Shown piece by piece: positions 28,839 to 50,991 of a stretch of DNA of 64,000 bases. The stretch is from Escherichia coli. Its GTDB lineage: Bacteria; Pseudomonadota; Gammaproteobacteria; Enterobacterales; Enterobacteriaceae. How positions within the stretch are numbered: the stretch's first letter is position 1; the number at the start of each line of letters is the position of its first letter. The stretch is taken from the NCBI RefSeq assembly GCF_013122565.1, contig NZ_CP053258.1; one strand, given 5' to 3'. Position numbers and translations under genes: made by a program. Below the pieces are notes generated by a model. It ran no database searches and had not been told where the DNA came from. It was given only the letters and a program-made list of their open reading frames with translations.

Positions 28839-28954
28839 TAATTGTCGCGAAACTGTCTGGATTGTGAGCAAAGGCGCAGGAATTCAGACACTCTCACTTA
28901 TCACTTCACGGAATGAGGGTTACCATACCCGGATTGCATTGACAGGAGATGTCC

Positions 28955-29998
28955 ATGAGCGAGAACTCGATTCGTTTGACCCAATACAGCCACGGAGCTG
29001 GTTGCGGCTGTAAAATTTCCCCAAAAGTGTTGGAAACCATCCTGCACAGTGAGCAGGCGAAGTTTGTTGATCCGAATTTGCTTGTGGGTAATGAAACCCG
29101 CGACGATGCGGCGGTGTACGATCTGGGCAATGGCACCAGCGTTATCAGTACCACCGACTTCTTTATGCCGATCGTTGATAATCCTTTCGATTTTGGCCGC
29201 ATTGCGGCGACTAACGCCATCAGCGATATCTTCGCGATGGGGGGCAAACCGATTATGGCGATTGCGATCCTCGGCTGGCCGATTAACAAACTTTCCCCGG
29301 AAATTGCCCGCAAAGTAACCGAAGGTGGACGCTATGCATGCCGTCAGGCGGGTATTGCGCTGGCTGGCGGTCACTCCATCGATGCGCCGGAGCCGATTTT
29401 TGGTCTGGCGGTAACGGGGATCGTACCGACCGAGCGGGTGAAGAAAAACAGTACCGCACAAGCCGGATGCAAACTGTTCCTGACGAAACCGCTGGGGATC
29501 GGCGTTCTTACCACGGCTGAGAAAAAATCACTGTTGAAACCAGAACATCAGGGACTGGCGACGGAAGTGATGTGCCGGATGAACATCGCAGGCGCGTCCT
29601 TTGCCAACATTGAAGGCGTAAAAGCGATGACCGACGTAACGGGCTTTGGCCTGCTGGGCCATTTGAGCGAAATGTGTCAGGGCGCAGGTGTGCAGGCGCG
29701 CGTTGACTATGACGCGATCCCAAAATTGCCGGGGGTTGAAGAGTACATTAAGTTGGGCGCAGTGCCTGGCGGCACCGAACGTAACTTTGCCAGCTACGGT
29801 CATCTGATGGGTGAAATGCCGCGTGAAGTGCGCGATTTGCTGTGCGATCCGCAAACTTCTGGCGGTTTGCTGCTGGCGGTCATGCCGGAAGCAGAAAATG
29901 AGGTTAAAGCTACAGCCGCCGAGTTTGGCATTGAACTGACGGCGATTGGCGAACTGGTGCCAGCGCGCGGCGGTCGTGCCATGGTTGAGATCCGTTAA
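28955..29998 (+). CDS. selD: Selenide, water dikinase (selenophosphate synthetase)
   Basis: 347 aa [23 protein letters not shown]. Confidence 0.92.
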
Positions 29999-34810: not shown

Positions 34811-35083
34811 GTGAGTCGAGCATTGTTCGCCGTAGTATTAGCATTTCCATTTATTGCACTGGCTAACCCGCATTATCGTCCGGACGTGGAGGTTAACGTA
34901 CCGCCAGAAGTGTTCAGTTCAGGCGGGCAGTCAGCGCAGCCCTGTACTCAGTGCTGCGTTTATCAGGATAAAAATTATTCTGAAGGAGCGGTAATTAAAG
35001 CCGAGGGAATACTGCTGCAATGCCAGCGTGATGACAAAACCCTTAGCACTAATCCGCTGGTCTGGCGGCGCGTAAAGCCATAA
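34811..35083 (+). CDS. ynjH: DUF1496 secreted protein
   Basis: 90 aa with signal peptide. Confidence 0.8.
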   Translation: MSRALFAVVLAFPFIALANPHYRPDVEVNVPPEVFSSGGQSAQPCTQCCVYQDKNYSEGAVIKAEGILLQCQRDDKTLSTNPLVWRRVKP

Positions 35084-35542: not shown

Positions 35543-36163
35543 GTGCTAGACCGCCATCTTCATCCCCGGATTAAACCGTTGTTGCATCAGTGCGTGCGGG
35601 TTCTTGATAAACCGGGCATTACGCCAGATGGTTTAACATTAGTGGGATTTGCCATCGGCGTGCTGGCTCTGCCGTTTCTGGCTCTGGGCTGGTATCTGGC
35701 GGCGCTAGTCGTCATTTTGTTGAATCGTCTGCTTGATGGTCTGGATGGCGCACTGGCGCGGCGCAGAGGGCTTACCGACGCGGGCGGCTTTCTCGATATT
35801 TCTCTCGATTTTCTCTTTTACGCGCTGGTGCCGTTTGGTTTTATTCTTGCTGCACCGGAGCAAAATGCGCTGGCAGGCGGCTGGCTGCTGTTTGCGTTTA
35901 TCGGCACGGGCAGCAGTTTTCTCGCTTTTGCTGCGCTGGCGGCGAAACATCAGATTGATAATCCCGGTTATGCGCATAAATCGTTTTATTATCTGGGCGG
36001 GTTAACCGAAGGCAGCGAGACGATTTTGCTATTTGTTCTGAGTTGCCTCTTTCCGACGTGTTTTCCGTGGTTTGCATGGGTATTTGGTGCGTTGTGCTGG
36101 ATGACGACCTTTACGCGGGTGTGGAGTGGGTATCTGACGCTGAAGTCGCTCCAGCGTCAGTAA
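35543..36163 (+). CDS. ynjF: CDP-alcohol phosphatidyltransferase-family membrane protein
   Basis: 206 aa from GTG 5 nt after taaggag SD; motif DGxxAR...G. Confidence 0.85.
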   Translation: MLDRHLHPRIKPLLHQCVRVLDKPGITPDGLTLVGFAIGVLALPFLALGWYLAALVVILLNRLLDGLDGALARRRGLTDAGGFLDISLDFLFYALVPFGFILAAPEQNALAGGWLLFAFIGTGSSFLAFAALAAKHQIDNPGYAHKSFYYLGGLTEGSETILLFVLSCLFPTCFPWFAWVFGALCWMTTFTRVWSGYLTLKSLQRQ

Positions 36164-36171
36164 TTGCAATG

Positions 36172-37479
36172 TTATTTGCTGCTGTCCGGGCCGCGTTCAC
36201 CGGTTGCAACCGGATTTTTTGGATCGCTGCTCCATTCGTACCAGCCGCCGTCGTAAACGGAGACGTTATTCCAGCCCATTGCTCGTGCGTACATAAAGGT
36301 TTCGGACGCGCGCCAGCCGGTGCCGCAGTAGAATGAAACTTGCTGATCTGGTTTGATATTCCATGCTTTCCACATAGCCGTAATATCATCGGCGCTGCGC
36401 ATGGTGCCATCCGGGTTATGGAAATCTTCCATATGCGTCGAGTCGCTACCAGCGTGTCCCCAACGTGCTCCGGCTATTTCACCTTTTGGTTTAATATAGC
36501 TGTAACCGCTGGTCGTACCGATAAATTCTGGCCACGAACGAATGCTCACCAGCGATGAATCCTGGCGATGCAGCAGTCCACGCGCCTGTTCCATATCAAG
36601 CATCAGTTGCGGTTGTGCCGGGATCTTCACGCCGAAATCCGGTTCCGCTTTCACTTTCGGTGGCGTTCCTCGCTCAACAGGCAGTCCCGCGTCGGACCAG
36701 GTTTGCCAGCCGCCATCCAGCAGGCGCACATCTTTCACGCCGGCATAAAGCATAATCTGCGCCACACGCGCTGCAGCGTATACGTCACGCCCATACAGAA
36801 TGACCGTGGTGTCATGGCGAATGCCGTGTTTTGCCAGCATCGCTTTTAGTTGTGCATCAGAAACTTTGTTCCACAGCGGTTCGCTTTCCACTTCGTTGGT
36901 ATCGATGTAGTCAGCACCGGGAATATGGCTGATAAGGTAAAGCTTAGGAGCGCCCCAGGCCGCTTCAATGACTTTCCAGTCACCGGCAGGTTTCGCCGTA
37001 ACCTCTTTACCTTGTTGCAGGTCGTGCAGCCATTGCGGATAAACCAGCTGCTCAAAGTGCGGCAGTTTTTGTAGACGGGAAGGTTCGCTTAGCGCGTCAC
37101 TCAGAATGGAGATATGCGTAAAACCTGCTTTTTGCAGTCGCGTTTTGACGGCGTCGACATCTTTGTCATTACCGTACAGCGCCACCGGGGCATCGGCTTT
37201 CAGGTTATGTTGCTTGATCCACGCGTTGAGCTGTTCGGTGCTCATTTTGTCAAGCCAGCTAGCAGAGAGGTTTAAGGCGGCAGGTTCATGACCAGAAGGG
37301 CCATTTAAGGTTTGTGGCCAGCCGTTATAAAACGCGCTGGGGCGAGTATCTATCGCTTTGCCATTTTGTTGTTGAAGCTGGTCAAGTGTAAGAGGCTTCG
37401 CCAGTTCAGCGGCCCACGAAGAAGCGCAAGCCAGCCCTAAAGCCATTGCCAGCGCGGTCATTTGAGAAACACGTTTCAT
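36172..37479 (-). CDS. ynjE: Periplasmic thiosulfate sulfurtransferase (multi-rhodanese)
   Basis: 435 aa, signal peptide, rhodanese active-site Cys (CGTGWR). Confidence 0.88.
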   Translation of the reverse strand: MKRVSQMTALAMALGLACASSWAAELAKPLTLDQLQQQNGKAIDTRPSAFYNGWPQTLNGPSGHEPAALNLSASWLDKMSTEQLNAWIKQHNLKADAPVALYGNDKDVDAVKTRLQKAGFTHISILSDALSEPSRLQKLPHFEQLVYPQWLHDLQQGKEVTAKPAGDWKVIEAAWGAPKLYLISHIPGADYIDTNEVESEPLWNKVSDAQLKAMLAKHGIRHDTTVILYGRDVYAAARVAQIMLYAGVKDVRLLDGGWQTWSDAGLPVERGTPPKVKAEPDFGVKIPAQPQLMLDMEQARGLLHRQDSSLVSIRSWPEFIGTTSGYSYIKPKGEIAGARWGHAGSDSTHMEDFHNPDGTMRSADDITAMWKAWNIKPDQQVSFYCGTGWRASETFMYARAMGWNNVSVYDGGWYEWSSDPKNPVATGERGPDSSK

Positions 37480-37545
37480 CGAAAATCCCGACATTGTAGT
37501 TTTGAGTGCGCCATTCTGAACTGACGCATTGAGAAAAACTTTGCG

Positions 37546-38199
37546 TTATCGCAGTTTGTTGTAATTTTCTGACCACTGCGCCATATCCAGAACAGAACTA
37601 TCAGCAGGAACATCCTGGAGATCGTGCGTTACCTGAACGACGGGGATCGCCAGGGCGCGAACTTCGCTGAACACCCACTGGCGAAAATTATCGCGCAGAG
37701 CCACATCAAGACGGCTGAATGGCTCATCCAGGAGTAACGCTTTTGGCTGGGCGAGAAGGGCGCGTAGTAGAGCAACGCGCGCTCGCTGACCGCCAGACAA
37801 AGTGGCAGGATCCTGATGGAAAGCTCCGTCAAGGCCTGAACGCTCAAGTGCATCATTCACGGCATTACGTCGGGCATTCCCTTTAAGTGTCGCCGGTAGC
37901 GCCAGCAGTAAATTTTGCCCGACGCTGAACTGGTCAAATAACAGTGCATCCTGGAAAAGAATGCCAATCTGACGCTGTGCGGTGGGTAGCATGTCAATCC
38001 GTTGCTCATTGAGCCATAGCTCACCTGTACAAGAAAACTGTCCAGCCAGTGCACCAATCATCCATGAAAACAGAGTGGATTTTCCACAGCCAGACGGCCC
38101 CATTAACGTGACGATGTCACCTTTATCAACTGTAAAGTTAACGTTTGTCAGCAAGCGGCTTTCTGGTAAACGTAGCGAAACATTTTTCACGCAGAGCAT
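37546..38199 (-). CDS. ynjD: ABC transporter ATP-binding protein
   Basis: 217 aa, Walker A GPSGCGKST, signature LSGGQ. Confidence 0.88.
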   Translation of the reverse strand: MLCVKNVSLRLPESRLLTNVNFTVDKGDIVTLMGPSGCGKSTLFSWMIGALAGQFSCTGELWLNEQRIDMLPTAQRQIGILFQDALLFDQFSVGQNLLLALPATLKGNARRNAVNDALERSGLDGAFHQDPATLSGGQRARVALLRALLAQPKALLLDEPFSRLDVALRDNFRQWVFSEVRALAIPVVQVTHDLQDVPADSSVLDMAQWSENYNKLR

Positions 38200-39734
38200 T
38201 AGCGGAGTCCTTGTCTGACATAACCTACCCATTTTGCGACTAACGCGGTCAGGGCAAAAATAATAAGCGGTAACAACTGTTGCCATAAAGCCTGGGCGGC
38301 GAGAATACCGTTGCTGCCGCCGCTGCTTAATGCCACCGCCTCAGTGGTGAGCGTCGGAAAACGCCCCGCGCCCAGCCACAGCGTCGGCATATACTGCGCA
38401 ATACTGACTGAAAATCCCACCGCGAAGGCAATCAGCGTAGGGCGTAGCATAAGCGGACATTTCACGTAAAAGAAGATTTTGGCCCGCGACCAGCCCAGTG
38501 TTTGCGCAATCAAAATTAACCGTGAATCAATGCGCTGCCAGGCGGGTTGCAGGATAAACAGCATCCACGGCATTACCCACAGCAGATGCCCCCAGACCAC
38601 CGCCGTCCAGCTTCCATCCAGGTTCAGCCATAGCGCCAGCGTGTACTGGCCCGCCACCAGTGGCAGAGCGGGTAATAAAATGGGCAACCATAGCCACAAC
38701 TGGCGACGCTGTGGCCCCCATTCCAGCCACAGCAGTAACAGGAGCAAAGCGATGAATGTCGCCACCAGCCCAATTGTCAGGCTGTTGATGAGCGCTTCAC
38801 TATTGATCGTCGACTGATCCGCGAGGATCGCCAGCAGAACCACACACAGCACACCGGTTAAGGGTAAAAAAATCGCCAGCGTAGTGCCTGGTAATAAAGG
38901 TGTGGCAGGCTTGCGAATGCCATCTACGCGGGGAATAGTGCGCCGCCAGCTGCGCCATAGCAGATAGCTCAGCAAAACGTAGGCGGCGAGTAACAGCATC
39001 AGCAGCAGACTGGCGAGTGCGCCTTTCGTTTGGTGATCCGCGTCGCCCTGAGTTAACCACTGCCAGCTAATTACTGCCAGCGTCGGTGGATTACCTGGCC
39101 CAAGAATAATCGCCACATCCACGACCGAAAGCGACCAGGCAACAATCGCCAGCATCGCCATTGCCAGCGCGGGCGCGATGGAGGGCAACAGCAGCCAGTT
39201 CAAACATTGCCAGCGGCTGTAGCCCAGCGAATCCAGCACAATGAGTTGCTGCAACAGCCGTTTTTCGCTCAATACTGCCGCTAAGATCCACAGCAGAAAT
39301 GCGCTTTCTTTCACTGCAAGGGTGAGGCCCAGACCGATGCCAAATCGGTCCATTGGCGGAGTGAAATACGGGAAATAGTCATAAAGCAGCCCTCCGTCAG
39401 CAAAGAGCAGAAGGGCGCTGGTGGCAAAAGCCACATGGGGAATGGCGAGCAGCCACGGCAGACGGGCACACATACGCTGCCATTTCGGCCCAGGCCACAG
39501 CGCCACAATCACCAGCAGAGCAATCAACAACGCCCCCACCGCCGCGATGGTTGTCGACACCAGCGTTGCCAGTAATGCCTGCGGTAACTGTGGATCGGCA
39601 AATAACGCCTGCCAGTGTGTCAACGACAAAGCAGGCGATATCAGCGTGAGAGCTGCCGGGATCAGCGGTGCATAAATCACCGCCACCATCGCCCACAGCA
39701 AAAAGATTAATGCGTACCGTAACGGTGTAGCCAT
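38199..39734 (-). CDS. ynjC: ABC transporter permease (fused two-domain)
   Basis: 511-aa multi-TM ORF overlapping ynjD start. Confidence 0.88.
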   Translation of the reverse strand: MATPLRYALIFLLWAMVAVIYAPLIPAALTLISPALSLTHWQALFADPQLPQALLATLVSTTIAAVGALLIALLVIVALWPGPKWQRMCARLPWLLAIPHVAFATSALLLFADGGLLYDYFPYFTPPMDRFGIGLGLTLAVKESAFLLWILAAVLSEKRLLQQLIVLDSLGYSRWQCLNWLLLPSIAPALAMAMLAIVAWSLSVVDVAIILGPGNPPTLAVISWQWLTQGDADHQTKGALASLLLMLLLAAYVLLSYLLWRSWRRTIPRVDGIRKPATPLLPGTTLAIFLPLTGVLCVVLLAILADQSTINSEALINSLTIGLVATFIALLLLLLWLEWGPQRRQLWLWLPILLPALPLVAGQYTLALWLNLDGSWTAVVWGHLLWVMPWMLFILQPAWQRIDSRLILIAQTLGWSRAKIFFYVKCPLMLRPTLIAFAVGFSVSIAQYMPTLWLGAGRFPTLTTEAVALSSGGSNGILAAQALWQQLLPLIIFALTALVAKWVGYVRQGLR

Positions 39735-40873
39735 TCTTGTTCCAGCGCATTTACCCAACCTGCGTGCGGTTCAGCCAGTACCGGCGGCAGATCTTGCGGC
39801 ATTCTTGATTGCAATGTTTCGCGCTGCCCATCAGGCAGTTTTTGCGGATCGAGAACAGAAGGATCGCCCCAGACAGCGGGATCTGCTTTACGCAATTGCG
39901 CATCGGGTGAGAGCAAGAAATTGGCAACTACCTTCGCCGCAGCACTGGCATTCGCGTTGGCAGGAATGGTGACGAAATGCACGTTGCCAATCATCCCCTC
40001 GCGAAAGCCAAAACTGTAACTGCTTGCAGGCAAATCGCCGCTGGCGATTTTTTGCTGCGCATGCGCGGGGTTAAAGGTCAGCGACAGGCGCAATGTGCCG
40101 GCTTTCAGCAGAGCATCCATCCGCGCGGGCGAAGGCGGGAAATCCTTTCCTTCGCGCCACAAATACGGATGCAGCGCATCAAGATATTGCCACAAGGGAG
40201 CAGTGACACGGGCGAAAGTCGCATCGTCCGGCGCTTCTTTTAATGCGGCGGGATCGGGCGTCAGCATAATCAGCAACTGTTCAAGAAACGCCGTGCCGGT
40301 AAAGTCCGGTGGGCGCGGATAGGTAACCGTGCCGGGATTGGCTTTAGCAAACTCCAGTAAGGCTTGCGGCGTTTGTGGTGGCTGTGGCGTAACATCGCGG
40401 CGGGCGATAAATGTCAGTTGTGCGCCCCCCCAGGGCGATTCAGCCCCTTCTGTAGGCACTGAAAAATCTTCCCGCACCGGCAGCCGTGTGTCGACATAGC
40501 GCCAGTTGGGCAGAGTCTCCGCCCAGCCCGTTTGTAATAAATTGGCCTCTTTTAAGGTGCGGAAGTTTTCGCCGTTCACCCAGAGCAGATCCACCGAGCC
40601 GCCCGTTTTACGTCCGGCTGCGGCTTCGGTCTGAATGCGCTTCACCGCGTCTGCGGCATCCGCCAGACGGACAATCTTCAGGTTTATAGCGTAATGGGTT
40701 TTAATCTCGCCGCTAACCCAGTCGAGATAGCGGTTAATTGCGGTATCGCCGCCCCAGGCGTTAAACCAGACGGTTTGCCCTTTGGCCTCATTTTTAATTT
40801 CCTGCCAGTCACTGGCATGTGTTGCCAGAGAAAACAGCGATAACAATCCCAGCAACCACCCACAATGGCGCAT
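39707..40873 (-). CDS. ynjB: ABC transporter periplasmic binding protein
   Basis: 388 aa with signal peptide. Confidence 0.88.
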   Translation of the reverse strand: MRHCGWLLGLLSLFSLATHASDWQEIKNEAKGQTVWFNAWGGDTAINRYLDWVSGEIKTHYAINLKIVRLADAADAVKRIQTEAAAGRKTGGSVDLLWVNGENFRTLKEANLLQTGWAETLPNWRYVDTRLPVREDFSVPTEGAESPWGGAQLTFIARRDVTPQPPQTPQALLEFAKANPGTVTYPRPPDFTGTAFLEQLLIMLTPDPAALKEAPDDATFARVTAPLWQYLDALHPYLWREGKDFPPSPARMDALLKAGTLRLSLTFNPAHAQQKIASGDLPASSYSFGFREGMIGNVHFVTIPANANASAAAKVVANFLLSPDAQLRKADPAVWGDPSVLDPQKLPDGQRETLQSRMPQDLPPVLAEPHAGWVNALEQEWLHRYGTH

Positions 40874-40882
40874 CATCTCTCC

Positions 40883-41431
40883 TTAAGAACGTTTTTCAGG
40901 AATACGGCACAGCCCCTGAGCGGGAATGTCCATGGCAGAATTAAAACGGGCTGACAGATTTTGCAGGCCGATCAATGCCGTCAGTTCGGTGAGCGCCTGA
41001 GCGTCAAAATGCGCAGCCAGTCGGGTGCGCAGGGCATCATCGACCGTAGGCGGTGTGACGCTTGCGGCTTCGGCGTACTCCAGCGCCAGCCGTTCTTCAT
41101 CGCTGAAGAGCGGGCTTTGCCGCCAGTCAGCCACTGCCAGCAGTTTATCGCTGCTGCCGGTGCGCTCGGCGACTTTCATACTGGTGATATCCACACAAAA
41201 CTCACACAGGCACATTTGCGCAATGCGCGCGCTGACAAGCGATCGTACTACCGGATCGAGCGGTGAGCGTTTGCGCTCCAGCCAGCCAACAAACATCGAC
41301 ACCAGATAAAAGATAAACGGGATCCGCCCCCACCAGCGAATGGGGCTTAGCACCTCGCCGTAATGGCGACGATGCAGCCACGCCTGCGGACGTAAAATGA
41401 AAGGAATTTTGCTAAGCGGCGGTAAACCCAT
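40883..41431 (-). CDS. ynjA: Carboxymuconolactone decarboxylase / AhpD-like protein
   Basis: 182-aa ORF. Confidence 0.85.
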   Translation of the reverse strand: MGLPPLSKIPFILRPQAWLHRRHYGEVLSPIRWWGRIPFIFYLVSMFVGWLERKRSPLDPVVRSLVSARIAQMCLCEFCVDITSMKVAERTGSSDKLLAVADWRQSPLFSDEERLALEYAEAASVTPPTVDDALRTRLAAHFDAQALTELTALIGLQNLSARFNSAMDIPAQGLCRIPEKRS

Positions 41432-42138
41432 CAGGCATTCCTCTTCTGGCGCTCAAGCCATATTTTCTTCGCCATAAAAATCACCACGGTCAGGGCAAAC
41501 AGAATAAACAGTCCGGTGACAAACCAGAAGGTACCGCCTGTTAACATGCTGCCCGCCCAGGAATAAACAATAGTCGCCGGTAACTGACCAAGCCCGGTGG
41601 CGATAAAAAACGAGCGAAAACGGATTGAAGTCAGACCGGCAGCATAGCTGATTGGATCGAAAGGGACAAAAGGCAATAACCGACAGACCAGGATGGTGTG
41701 TTTGCCGTAGCGAGTGAAAAAGCCGTCCATACTGTCAAGTACTGTTTTGCCGGTTAATTTTTCCACCACTTCGCGGCCCATCACTCTGGCGATAAAAAAG
41801 CACAGTGCCGCGCCGGCCATCGAACTGGTCCACGACAGCAAGCCGCCCCAGAACGCGCCAAATAGCGACGCATTGGCAAAGGTGATCAAAAACGCAGGTA
41901 GCGGTGCAGCAATGGCCTGTAAAATCATCAACAAGAACGAGACAACTGCCGCCAGTGCGCCGTAAGACTGAATAAAGCGTTCTATACCCTGTTGGTCCAC
42001 GGCGGCAAACGCCGCAACGCTGCGATTGATAAACTCATGGACGCCGGGAAGCAGCGCCCATGCCAGCAGCATAGCGAACAACAGGATGATGAGGGTTATA
42101 CGGTAGTACCAGATTTTACGCGATTGCATATTCATCAT
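41431..42138 (-). CDS. ydjZ: DedA/TVP38-family membrane protein
   Basis: 235-aa multi-TM ORF. Confidence 0.85.
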   Translation of the reverse strand: MMNMQSRKIWYYRITLIILLFAMLLAWALLPGVHEFINRSVAAFAAVDQQGIERFIQSYGALAAVVSFLLMILQAIAAPLPAFLITFANASLFGAFWGGLLSWTSSMAGAALCFFIARVMGREVVEKLTGKTVLDSMDGFFTRYGKHTILVCRLLPFVPFDPISYAAGLTSIRFRSFFIATGLGQLPATIVYSWAGSMLTGGTFWFVTGLFILFALTVVIFMAKKIWLERQKRNA

Positions 42139-42152
42139 CCTTTATCCTGGCT

Positions 42153-42830
42153 TTATTCGGTGATTTTAAAGGTAACCGTTGCCAGCGTGTTATCCGCCGG
42201 GAGAACCGAGGCATTGCCTTTGAATTTAACTTCACCTCGTTTTTCAACTGCACCATAAGTGTATGTTGCATTGCTGACGATGCCGACCGGGCAGCTATCC
42301 AGACACACCAGGCAGCCCGTTTTCTTCTCTTCTGCTGCCGTTAAATTACCGCCAAAGCGCATGTCCAGTTTCTTGCCATTACTGTCAACAATCACTTCAT
42401 CGAAGGAATACGTTTTTGCCGCCCCTTGCCAGTTGACCGAAATATCCAGTTTGCTGCCTGTGACATGAGTCGTTTCTTTATTATCCATCGTCATGTTTTC
42501 GCCCGGTGTACCACCTGCCTCTTTCAGGGCTTCATAAAATGCTTTCGGGGTCGCATAACCCATAAACAGCGATTTATGTCCGTTGGAGCCATCTTTAAAC
42601 ACAATACCGTGACGAGTGTCGTCGGTGAGGAAACGACCATTAATTTGCACCAGCATGGTTACCGTATGGTTATTGGCATCGACGCGCAGCGGTTGGCTGT
42701 TCGAAAGTCCGTCGTATTCCACTTTTGCCGCCGCATTCTCTTTTTGATCGCAGCCGCTAAGCCCAGCAACAGCCAGTAAGCAGAGTGCAGTCAGTCCTTT
42801 TTTCCATGACACTGAATAATGTTGCAACAT
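42153..42830 (-). CDS. ydjY: Lipoprotein with Cys cluster (CxxCxxxCP)
   Basis: 225 aa from MLQHYSV; lipobox LSGC; CLVCLDSCP. Confidence 0.85.
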   Translation of the reverse strand: MLQHYSVSWKKGLTALCLLAVAGLSGCDQKENAAAKVEYDGLSNSQPLRVDANNHTVTMLVQINGRFLTDDTRHGIVFKDGSNGHKSLFMGYATPKAFYEALKEAGGTPGENMTMDNKETTHVTGSKLDISVNWQGAAKTYSFDEVIVDSNGKKLDMRFGGNLTAAEEKKTGCLVCLDSCPVGIVSNATYTYGAVEKRGEVKFKGNASVLPADNTLATVTFKITE

Positions 42831-42834
42831 CGTT

Positions 42835-43545
42835 CTATCCTTCATTTTTTGGGTGAGTAAGTGGGTTGCGGCGCGAAGCAGACAGATCCACATGTTTGTG
42901 TCGGGCGTAGAGTTTTGCGAGCTGGACGAGAATAAACAGCGCCAGGCCCGCCAGACAGAGTTGTAAAATAAAGCGCAGCGTAATGCCTTCATTGGCGAGA
43001 TCGCTTGCCATCACGGTATAAATAACAATACCGGGCAGGGTCGTGAGTGCCGAAATAAGGGTATAAGGCCAGAAGGCGATTGTGGTTAATCCGTAAGCGT
43101 AATTTTGAATATTGTAAGGAAACAACGGGATTAAGCGGGTCAGAATAAGAAAATCAATACCGTTACGCGCAATGCCTTTTTCAATGGCCTGGAAGGTATG
43201 GCTATGGCCAACGTATTTCAGCAGTAAATCACGTCCCAGCCAGCGCGCCAGCAGGAATGAGCACGAGGAGGCCAGCGTGGCGGCAATTAATGAGAGTAGT
43301 GTCCCTAAGAGCGGGCCAAAAACTATTCCTCCAGCGATCACCAGTATGCTTCCTGGTAACAGAAAGAGGGTGGCAATGATGAATAACAGAATATAGAGGC
43401 TATAACCGAACAATCCGCTCTGGCGGATGAGTGTCTGTAAGTGGGGTAAATCGGTGAGCAGATCGAATAAACCGAAAGCGTGGATAGCGTAAATGACCAG
43501 CGCAAAAATAAGACAGGCAAAAAGAAATTTACGCTCAGCGTTCAT
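42835..43545 (-). CDS. ydjX: DedA/TVP38-family membrane protein
   Basis: 236 aa from MNAERKFLFACLIF. Confidence 0.85.
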   Translation of the reverse strand: MNAERKFLFACLIFALVIYAIHAFGLFDLLTDLPHLQTLIRQSGLFGYSLYILLFIIATLFLLPGSILVIAGGIVFGPLLGTLLSLIAATLASSCSFLLARWLGRDLLLKYVGHSHTFQAIEKGIARNGIDFLILTRLIPLFPYNIQNYAYGLTTIAFWPYTLISALTTLPGIVIYTVMASDLANEGITLRFILQLCLAGLALFILVQLAKLYARHKHVDLSASRRNPLTHPKNEG

Positions 43546-43711
43546 CGTGGAGTTTCCTATATCAAACTTGATAATAGAGAAGTGGTCAGACAACTAAAAA
43601 CGCAGTGACGGTATAACAAAGGACGGCAGGCAACAAATCATTACTGACAGTTTGTTGATTTTTCTCAAGGTTAATTCTCCTGACCCAGTTTGAGCCAGGA
43701 GAGCTGCTAAA

Positions 43712-44518
43712 TTAGCGGCGGAAGGTCGCCCAGACGGGGGCGTGATCGGACGGTTTTTCCATGCTGCGAATTTCATAGTCGATGCCGGTTTCTACGCAAC
43801 ATTCTGCCAGCGGTTGGCTGGCGAGCAGCAGGTCGATGCGCAGACCACGGTTATCGTCAAAACCTTTTGAGCGGTAATCAAACCATGAGAAACGATCTGC
43901 TGTTTGCGGATTCGCATGGCGGAAGGTATCGACCAACCCCCAGCTCATCAGTCTCTCCATCCATTCGCGCTCTTCCGGCAGGAAAGAGCATTTACCGGTA
44001 CGCAGCCAGCGCTTACGGTTTTCTTCGCCAATGCCGATATCCAGATCTGTAGGGCTGATATTCATATCGCCCATAATCAGTACCGGATTATCACGTTTGA
44101 GTTCGGTTTCCAGATAGTTTTGCAGATTCTGATAAAACTGCGCCTTTGCCGGGAATTTTATCGGATGGTCGCGGCTTTCACCCTGCGGGAAGTAACCGTT
44201 GATCACGGTGACATTGCCCAGCGGCGAGGGGATTTCCGCCATAATAATCCGCCGTTGCGCCTCTTCGTCGTCACCGGGAAAGCCGCGACGCACGGCAATC
44301 GGCGTCTCTTTGGTCAGCAGCGCCACGCCATAATGGCCTTTCTGCCCGTGATAAAACACGTTGTAGCCAAGCTTCGCCACCTCTTCGAGCGGAAACATAT
44401 CGTCATGAACTTTTGTCTCCTGCAGGCCAATCACATCCGGCTGGTGCTTTTCGACGATGGCTTCAAGCTGGTGGGGTCTGGCGCGCAGGCCGTTGATATT
44501 AAAAGAGACAAATTTCAT
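43712..44518 (-). CDS. xthA: Exodeoxyribonuclease III
   Basis: 268 aa [19 protein letters not shown]... Confidence 0.95.
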
Positions 44519-44875
44519 AGTCGCTGCCATTTATTCAGATAAAGAGTGCGTGGATGGTAGCAGAATTTCGCTGTGCTTACCGCCTGTTGTTAAGTGATTT
44601 GATCGATGGTTGTTAATGATGTCAACGATGGCGCAAAAAATGCCCGCTTTTGGTGCGCGCTGCGTCAGAATGGCGCAGTAATTTCCAGTAAATTTCGTCA
44701 ATGATCACAATTCCAGAATTATATTTTACTTTTGCATAACATTGCGTTTTTTATTCTTTTTATCCATCCACATCACAAACGTATTCACTTTATATGCACT
44801 TTTAGTGCATATCGTCCGGTTGTAACTCCTTGATTAACAGTTAATCGCTCCCTTTTATGCACTTTTATCACTGGC

Positions 44876-44891
44876 TGGCACGAACCCTGCA
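44876..44891 (+). promoter_or_regulatory. sigma54 (-24/-12) promoter of ast operon
   Basis: TGGCACgaaccCTGCA about 75 bp upstream of astC start. Confidence 0.55.
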
Positions 44892-44927
44892 ATCTACATT
44901 TACAGCGCAATCATTACTTATTATTAA

Positions 44928-50991
<6,064 letters not shown>

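Follow-up and report, generated by a model that had tools for sequence, protein, structure and literature searches.

Comparative links to selenium and lipid head-group genes at the ydjXYZ-ynjABCD operon of Escherichia coli and its neighbours ynjE and ynjF

The stretch of Escherichia coli DNA analysed here, 64,000 nucleotides (nt) of contig NZ_CP053258.1 (assembly GCF_013122565.1; hereafter the window), carries the ydjXYZ-ynjABCD operon with ynjE and ynjF alongside. This is an already annotated locus of the E. coli core genome and, as such, a known object; its annotation and its control by FNR were also known, and what is added here are comparative links to selenium genes and to lipid head-group genes. 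We read the locus as one anaerobically induced, FNR-activated system of the inner membrane and periplasm that consists of two recurring modules. Module A would comprise the lipoprotein YdjY and its DedA/VTT partner YdjZ, and Module B two VTT proteins, a small cysteine-redox protein, the CDP-alcohol phosphatidyltransferase YnjF, the importer YnjBCD and often a rhodanese. E. coli joins both modules, which recur together or apart in distant anaerobes. As to function, we tentatively favour a role in which thiols handle a chalcogen, probably selenium, at the inner membrane, with coupling to a lipid head-group branch; this is possible rather than probable.

Gene order, conservation and anaerobic control

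The eight genes from ydjX to ynjE (36172-43545) are all intact, contain no internal stops and lie on the minus strand. In the direction of transcription they are ordered ydjX (42835-43545; 236 amino acids, aa), ydjY (42153-42830; 225 aa), ydjZ (41431-42138; 235 aa), ynjA (40883-41431), ynjB (39707-40873), ynjC (38199-39734; 511 aa) and ynjD (37546-38199), followed by ynjE (36172-37479), and the successive gaps measure 4, 14, -1, 9, -28, -1 and 66 nt. These coordinates and gaps bear out an earlier annotation of the window, the original prediction, in which seven co-directional genes overlap or abut. All genes named there are present, but the range assigned to them, 36172-43545, holds just the eight genes from ynjE to ydjX and leaves ynjF (35543-36163, plus strand) outside. 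Likewise, ynjF had been placed after the operon, and it is indeed adjacent; it is not a simple continuation, however, since it lies on the plus strand and faces ynjE, with 8 nt between the stop codons of the two convergent genes.

In the closest E. coli genome, RefSeq gives the same arrangement: xthA, then ydjX, ydjY, ydjZ, ynjA, ynjB, ynjC, ynjD and ynjE, then ynjF on the opposite strand, then nudG, ynjH and gdhA. The 10.5 kb around the locus (36000-46500) match 5424 of 5426 complete E. coli genomes, 5392 of them with a coverage of at least 80%. Because the arrangement is kept in these 5392 genomes and partial synteny extends to other phyla, it is not due to chance. With none of the 5426 genomes does the identity of the 10.5 kb exceed 98.4%, a hint that this Escherichia lineage is somewhat divergent.

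Operon mapping, which the original prediction had proposed as a check, has been published already. In E. coli K-12, ydjXYZ-ynjABCD forms a single operon under direct activation by FNR from a site at -60.5, and ynjE is a separate FNR-activated unit with its own FNR-dependent promoter and a site at -41.5 (Myers et al., 2013; PMC3688515). In the window, an FNR-like palindrome, TTGAGAAAAATCAA, lies on the minus strand upstream of ydjX (43655-43668) and deviates by one mismatch from TTGAT-N4-ATCAA. Its placement fits the -60.5 site of K-12, for which FNR binding and FNR-dependent expression are taken from the literature (PMC3688515); judged from the DNA, the first gene of the operon is preceded by a palindrome at an activating position. 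The ATCAA half of this palindrome and a TATAC block downstream of it are kept in E. albertii, Citrobacter, the Salmonella-type locus and Kluyvera. The sole promoter-like match between 35400 and 44000 is a sigma-70-like sequence before ynjE (TTCAGA-16-TACAAT, 37493-37520, minus strand), which agrees with the separate FNR-dependent promoter of K-12 (PMC3688515). A full FNR palindrome before ynjE was not found at up to two mismatches, only TTGAG half-sites, and for FNR control of ynjE we accordingly rely on published data. A weak induction of ynjABCD is seen when BaeR is over-expressed.

A terminator-like hairpin with a T-run, CCGGTTGCAACCGG (36200-36213, plus strand), follows ynjF and falls within the 3' end of ynjE. 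The hairpin is perfect and oriented for the plus strand, and its position within ynjE therefore implies overlapping convergent transcripts of ynjE and ynjF; this pair has been listed among such transcripts, termed 'excludons' (PMC12288877). Terminator-like hairpins number 27 between 35400 and 44000, against 10.9 expected from shuffled sequence, and most of them fall within coding sequence. Riboswitches, sought as clues to a ligand, were found neither in 14 related loci nor in the window.

Protein families of the system

Domain scores uphold every family label of the original prediction: two DedA/VTT proteins, a lipoprotein with the cysteine cluster CLVCLDSCP, an AhpD-like protein, an ATP-binding cassette (ABC) importer, a triple rhodanese and a CDP-alcohol phosphatidyltransferase. 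YdjX and YdjZ, two of the eight DedA paralogues of E. coli, are multi-pass members of the VTT/DedA family (PF09335; 93.1 and 87.1 bits, cutoff 33.9) with three or four long hydrophobic stretches apiece. They are only 27% identical to each other, and both stay far below the cutoff of the UptA-type equivalog NF052604 (27.5 and 36.4 bits, cutoff 250). YdjZ shares 51.5% identity with the VTT domain of a 390-aa protein that is encoded beside YdjY in a Catonella metagenome-assembled genome (L004/L039), whereas YdjX shares just 24% with the VTT proteins found alongside YdjY in other organisms. Judged from these identities, the VTT partner of YdjY in other phyla is the orthologue of YdjZ, not of YdjX. 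Lipid flipping or scrambling is known for the DedA/VTT members UptA, PetA, TMEM41B and VMP1 (PMC10193950).

YdjY contains the domain of its own family (NF040466/PF27149; 146.4 bits, cutoff 50). With a Sec lipoprotein-type signal peptide and the lipobox LSGC followed by D, it is predicted to be an exported lipoprotein. The cluster CLVCLDSCP corresponds to residues 173-181 and contains the conserved motif G-C-x-x-C-x-D-S-C. Among 37 YdjY sequences 32 positions are invariant, including C173, C176, C180, R73 and H74. Homologues with 44-76% identity are found in Bacillota, Campylobacterota and Desulfobacterota. An older database label, 4Fe-4S ferredoxin, was considered and rejected: the motif has only three cysteines, and neither Fer4 nor any other Pfam family matches. 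Searches of PDB sequences with YdjY and with YnjB returned nothing useful, the matches of YdjY to polyferredoxin-type subunits having E-values of 0.27-0.34; the YdjY fold is without a solved analogue.

Two further proteins may take part in thiol chemistry. YnjA belongs to the CMD/AhpD-like family (PF02627; 36.5 bits, cutoff 23) and carries the motif C-L-C-E-F-C, of which CEFC, embedded in MCLCEFCVD, is kept in the Salmonella-type orthologue. With NF053654, a 'YciW-related (seleno)protein' family, it shows a resemblance only (101.1 bits, cutoff 310). YnjE is a rhodanese with three rhodanese stretches and the active-site loop CGTGWR, and it is the protein of the structures PDB 3ipo and 2wlr (953 bits to 3ipo). 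It resembles the periplasmic rhodaneses PspE and Sud in being exported and in having an active-site cysteine, but differs in having three domains and in making poor use of standard donors: YnjE is described as periplasmic, with low activity towards thiosulfate and 3-mercaptopyruvate (Haenzelmann, 2009, cited in PMC10215317), and its contribution of sulfane sulfur in vivo is small (PMC10215317).

YnjB, YnjC and YnjD together have the make-up of a binding-protein-dependent ABC importer: a single operon encodes a binding protein, an ATPase and a permease made of two transmembrane halves. YnjB belongs to the substrate-binding family NF008633 (560 bits, cutoff 203). YnjC is a fused double permease with 12 hydrophobic segments, in which PF00528 matches the C-terminal half; in Firmicutes its counterpart is split into two separate genes. 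YnjD is an ABC ATPase (PF00005, 103.5 bits). In Foldseek comparisons, the AlphaFold2 (AF2) model of YnjB, which has a predicted local distance difference test (pLDDT) score of 95, is nearest to the cluster-D binding proteins PhnS-like, PotD, FbpA, AfuA and TbpA at 12-18% identity. These fold neighbours bind ligands as diverse as polyamines, iron, sugar phosphates, thiamine and aminoethylphosphonate, and the comparison identified no ligand for YnjB. ThiBPQ, PhnSTUV and FbpABC-type importers thus share with YnjBCD the architecture (binding protein, fused 12-helix permease and ATPase) and the fold class, but YnjBCD remains below all equivalog cutoffs. A sulfate/thiosulfate importer was rejected (CysT 25 bits versus cutoffs of 246-415; CysA 109 versus 502), as was a thiamine importer (ThiQ 131 bits versus 245-298). 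YnjD lies under the ThiQ, CysA and PhnT2 cutoffs, and the PhnU2 score reaches 35 bits against a cutoff of 593. The importer family is broader than the ydj/ynj system, since distant YnjB homologues have no VTT or YnjF neighbours and YnjBCD-type importers also occur alone. One such distant YnjB-type protein (L096 8001-14641), with neither VTT nor YnjF nearby, is encoded beside a DeoR-type regulator and genes resembling those for glycerol-3-phosphate dehydrogenase and glycerol kinase; this single case is a weak hint at a glycerol-containing ligand.

YnjF is a member of the CDP-alcohol phosphatidyltransferases (PF01066; 43.8 bits, cutoff 22) with five hydrophobic segments. Among the named enzymes of this type (PgsA, PIP synthase, archaetidylinositol-phosphate synthase and Pcs) it reaches no equivalog cutoff; its best curated family is archaetidylinositol-phosphate synthase, with 62.5 bits against a cutoff of 180. 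The YnjF-like proteins of the YdjY loci described below share their best-matching families with YnjF.

Neighbourhoods outside the Enterobacteria

Genes within 10 kb of YdjY were scored against the E. coli proteins and a set of recurrent partners in 74 non-enterobacterial loci. A VTT gene occurs in 69 of these, in 62 cases within 1.5 kb of YdjY. Less frequent partners are a small membrane protein with 3-4 helices (31 loci), a CCG-type protein of the iron-sulfur/disulfide-reductase type that is sometimes fused to VTT (Pfam PF02754; 23 loci), TIGR04283 (18), a kinase (13), a rhodanese (11), YnjB plus YnjC (11), ArsS (8) and a YnjF-like protein (6), while YnjA is found in none. The Firmicute YnjB-like proteins pass NF008633 with 381-509 bits (cutoff 203). 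Such combinations recur in Firmicutes, Campylobacterota and Desulfobacterota. The genes therefore co-occur outside the Enterobacteriaceae and behave as one functional neighbourhood; a lack of such co-occurrence, which the original prediction had named as evidence against itself, is not observed.

Closer relatives show a different order. In a Salmonella-type locus (L091 6593-13935) and in Kluyvera (L092 6656-13908), xthA is followed by two VTT genes, ynjB, ynjC, ynjD and ynjE; ydjY is missing, and ynjF, on the opposite strand, shares an operon with the gene of a YnjA orthologue (57% identity). The order with ydjY between the VTT genes and ynjA in the main operon is thus specific to Escherichia. 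The Salmonella-type/Kluyvera operon and a gene fusion argue that ynjF and ynjA belong to the system. The fusion joins a YnjF-type CDP-OH transferase to a YnjB-type protein (591 aa; L093 4891-6666, P0313, on a metagenomic contig) and has VTT, VTT and C_GCAxxG_C_C genes upstream. Further YnjB-type proteins are fused to an ICMT/PEMT-type methyltransferase or a GT2 domain (P0312/L094 719-2470; P0251). YnjF-like genes abut YnjB in five Firmicute loci, and in a sixth (L040) a YnjF-like gene is part of the YdjY cluster without YnjB. A flippase-like LPG_synthase_TM protein is present in six loci. Within Module B, the cysteine-redox proteins YnjA, C_GCAxxG_C_C and CCG apparently are interchangeable.

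Eleven of the 74 loci have selenium genes, here SelD, YedF, or selenocysteine tRNA (tRNA-Sec) with SelA/SelB, no more than 10 kb from YdjY; for a single-copy gene, chance would give about half a locus. In Desulfobacterota, a true SelD (338-358 bits, cutoff 125) is encoded beside YdjY in L029, L085 and L086, in L029 on the same strand and with a gap of 51 nt, and YedF occurs in five YdjY loci of this phylum. In Facklamia, tRNA-Sec is found 0.2-6 kb from YdjY in all five of five species; three of these loci also have SelD-YedF-SelB within 10 kb, and two have SelA. In Facklamia lactis (L082 1-18235), an ArsS-type cluster with YdjY, two VTT proteins, a rhodanese, a nucleoside hydrolase, a CcdA/DsbD-like protein and a ResA-like thioredoxin is directly followed by tRNA-Sec, SelD, YedF, SelB and SelA. 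This cluster contains the membrane electron conduit and the thioredoxin-like protein of CcdA-ResA thiol reduction, but the E. coli locus has no dedicated CcdA/ResA pair. SelD is also encoded by Gemella sp. GH3, which carries YdjY, and by Gemelliphila asaccharolytica, a congener of the YdjY-bearing Gemelliphila palaticanis. The arrangement of L082, and also of L079, L084, L088 and L089, resembles a 'selenium island', and a PrdB-like reading frame in the Facklamia cluster seems to be interrupted at what is probably a selenocysteine codon. In Sulfurospirillum arcachonense, a gene of the isochorismatase family (L002 11605-12165) is found in a nif region, two genes downstream of YdjY; according to a review, isochorismatase-like proteins are tied to an unassigned SelD-dependent trait.

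These neighbourhoods recall YedE/YedF, the candidate selenium trafficking proteins associated with SelD. YedF and SelD stand beside YdjY-VTT in Desulfobacterota and Facklamia, and both arrangements place a thiol- or rhodanese-like protein and a membrane protein near SelD. The membrane component is YedE in one case and DedA/VTT in the other, and the link between the two is one of neighbourhood only.

A second recurring association is with ArsS (TIGR04167), TIGR04282 and TIGR04283, which are annotated as 'arsenosugar biosynthesis' and were formerly named 'rSAM/selenodomain-associated'. They share operons with YdjY, VTT, rhodanese and CCG proteins in Campylobacter, Facklamia, Syntrophus and others. 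The operon of the Campylobacter concisus type comprises YdjY, a small membrane protein, a TIGR04282::kinase fusion, two VTT proteins, TIGR04283, a Fer4/CCG protein and ArsS (450 bits, cutoff 300), and is followed by a YnjE-like triple rhodanese. Facklamia lactis carries this set as well, enlarged by the nucleoside hydrolase, CcdA/DsbD-like and ResA-like genes named above. In the window, tblastn (E <= 1e-3) found no match to ArsS, TIGR04282, TIGR04283, the kinase, CCG, C_GCAxxG_C_C or the flippase-like protein. The E. coli locus has YnjBCD, YnjF and YnjA in place of the three defining enzymes and is at most a reduced or salvage relative of the ArsS system, not a member. A split into 'de novo' (ArsS) and 'salvage' (YnjB) loci was considered and dropped: the two do not overlap among the 74 loci (8 and 11, respectively), but an overlap of only about 1.2 would be expected by chance and the difference is not significant.

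The window itself contains selD (28949-29998, plus strand; NF002098, 618.6 bits, cutoff 299), which is 5.5 kb from the start of ynjF and separated from it by topB, ynjI, gdhA, ynjH and nudG. The 3' ends of ynjH (plus strand) and nudG (minus strand) overlap by 35 nt (35049-35083), and these two genes have likewise been given as an overlapping convergent pair (PMC12288877).

A tentative function and its rivals

The original prediction had proposed a periplasmic sulfur or redox trafficking system. Its thiol chemistry stands, as indicated by the YdjY cysteines, the exported YnjE and the CcdA/ResA proteins in Facklamia. Its sulfur does not: a specificity for sulfur is not supported because YnjE performs poorly with thiosulfate and 3-mercaptopyruvate and YnjBCD scores under the sulfate/thiosulfate cutoffs. 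The neighbourhood evidence favours selenium genes and lipid head-group enzymes over sulfur. From the gene content, families, synteny, selenium neighbourhoods and fusions described above we infer a substrate, a direction of transport and a series of biochemical steps. A chalcogen, most likely selenium, would be captured outside the inner membrane by cysteines, three in YdjY and one at the active site of YnjE, and would cross the membrane via YdjZ and YdjX. The cytoplasmic CxxC protein YnjA may then release or reduce the chalcogen for use, for example by SelD. In parallel, YnjBCD would import a polar alcohol, which YnjF would couple to CDP-diacylglycerol; the lipid so formed might then pass to the same VTT proteins, serving as carrier or co-substrate. 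According to reviews, no high-affinity selenium transporter is known (PMC9312934). The 'specific' selenite route of E. coli has yet to be characterised, and one report implicates a DedA protein in the uptake of selenite (Ledgham, 2005, cited in PMC2744661). YdjY, DedA and the y-genes of this locus go unmentioned in the principal comparative study of selenium genes (PMC5322559). A narrower version of this proposal, in which YdjY-YdjZ with YnjE, YnjA and possibly YnjBCD/YnjF would be part of a dedicated route of selenium acquisition or trafficking, switched on by FNR at the time when E. coli makes its selenocysteine-containing formate dehydrogenases, is rather unlikely; it would correspond to the never identified 'specific' selenium pathway. 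The same module would then serve the ArsS-type pathway in other anaerobes, beside SelD, YedF and the selenocysteine machinery.

Several points weigh against selenium as the substrate. The putative link is one of gene neighbourhood, not of experiment; selenium genes occur within 10 kb in just 11 of the 74 YdjY loci, and these perhaps represent few independent lineages (4-7). In E. coli, the nearness of selD to ynjF may be a coincidence, given the five unrelated genes between them. In a scan of one genome per species, YdjY was detected in about 95 of 100,044 species, and because this is far rarer than selenium use, YdjY is not a general selenium route; it is also missing from the Salmonella-type loci. 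Variants with selenocysteine (TGA) at the YdjY cysteines were sought and none were found. The classical screens for formate dehydrogenase mutants of E. coli are not known to have yielded genes other than selA-D. The characterised DedA proteins UptA and PetA flip lipids, and none is known as an ion carrier. Finally, selenium uptake alone would leave YnjF and YnjBCD unexplained.

This last difficulty would not arise if the locus encoded a custom phospholipid head-group pathway without any selenium, which is the strongest rival explanation, though a doubtful one. Here YnjBCD would import a polar alcohol, YnjF would join it to CDP-diacylglycerol, YdjX/YdjZ would flip the lipid to the periplasmic leaflet and YdjY/YnjE would read or modify the head group there, after the model of choline import with phosphatidylcholine synthase or of the pssA-petA(ybfM)-psd operon of Bacillus subtilis. 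In the latter, the gene of a DedA/VTT protein, the phosphatidylethanolamine flippase PetA, is likewise found beside that of a CDP-alcohol phosphatidyltransferase, PssA, and DedA::CDP-OH-transferase fusions are also known (PMC10193950). The family of YnjF, the abutting YnjF-like and YnjB genes, the YnjB fusions to a CDP-OH transferase, a methyltransferase and a glycosyltransferase, the flippase-like protein and the movement of lipids by known DedA proteins all fit such a pathway. However, the E. coli locus adds to the Bacillus arrangement a second VTT paralogue, an ABC importer, a three-cysteine lipoprotein, a rhodanese and a CxxC protein, and YnjF is no equivalog of PssA or PgsA. A purely lipid-based function would leave the cysteine-redox proteins (YnjA, C_GCAxxG_C_C and CCG), the rhodanese, the YdjY cysteines and the selenium genes unexplained. 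Moreover, most YdjY-VTT loci are without YnjF and YnjBCD, YnjBCD-type importers also stand alone without VTT or YnjF, and a YnjF-dependent lipid is absent from the literature. Trafficking of periplasmic sulfur (sulfane, thiosulfate or polysulfide), perhaps to supply the molybdenum cofactor in anaerobic respiration, would account for the cysteine-rich YdjY and YnjA and for the FNR-activated YnjE, a rhodanese that has been linked to molybdopterin synthesis and is annotated as 'molybdopterin synthase sulfurtransferase'. It would also agree with a Sulfurospirillum locus in which YdjY-VTT lies beside a Psr-like molybdoenzyme operon, and with the resemblance of the CCG domains to those of heterodisulfide reductase. 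Yet it is unlikely: besides the poor activity of YnjE with sulfur donors and its small contribution in vivo (PMC10215317) and the low CysT and CysA scores of the importer, YnjE is periplasmic whereas the molybdenum cofactor is made in the cytoplasm, and neither sulfur-assimilation nor Sox/Dsr genes recur near YdjY in the 74 loci.

Still less probable is a role in handling arsenic or organoarsenicals, by which the locus would be a reduced salvage version of the ArsS 'arsenosugar' set, with an arsenosugar-like alcohol being imported and lipidated by YnjF and with the three YdjY cysteines binding As(III). Three-cysteine sites are typical As(III) ligands, and the Campylobacter concisus-type operon does join YdjY, two VTT proteins and a YnjE-like rhodanese to ArsS, TIGR04282::kinase and TIGR04283. 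The presence of ArsS within 10 kb of YdjY in 8 of the 74 loci, of TIGR04283 in 18 and of nucleoside hydrolase in the Facklamia loci points the same way. But the window lacks these partner enzymes, no ars genes were found beside the locus, and the 'arsenosugar' names of TIGR04282 and TIGR04283 are based on association, not assay. In addition, members of the ArsS family are frequently selenoproteins, and the Facklamia ArsS is encoded inside an island of selenocysteine machinery, which fits selenium at least as well. That the genes have no common function and are mere neighbours, the operon being a historical accident, is highly improbable and was already disfavoured. No strong phenotype of single mutants has been reported, members of the YnjB family are found on their own in other bacteria, and YdjY is dispensed with in Salmonella-type loci, all as one would expect of an accident; the overlapping genes, however, suggest translational coupling, FNR co-regulates the locus, the same combinations are found in Firmicutes, Campylobacterota and Desulfobacterota, and gene fusions join the parts.

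Few multi-gene systems of E. coli K-12 still lack a function, and the ydjXYZ-ynjABCD locus is one of them. The comparative data sharpen the label 'sulfur or redox' into specific questions about selenium, lipid and ligand. If the tentatively favoured handling of selenium were true, the system would fill a long-standing gap, high-affinity selenium transport in bacteria.

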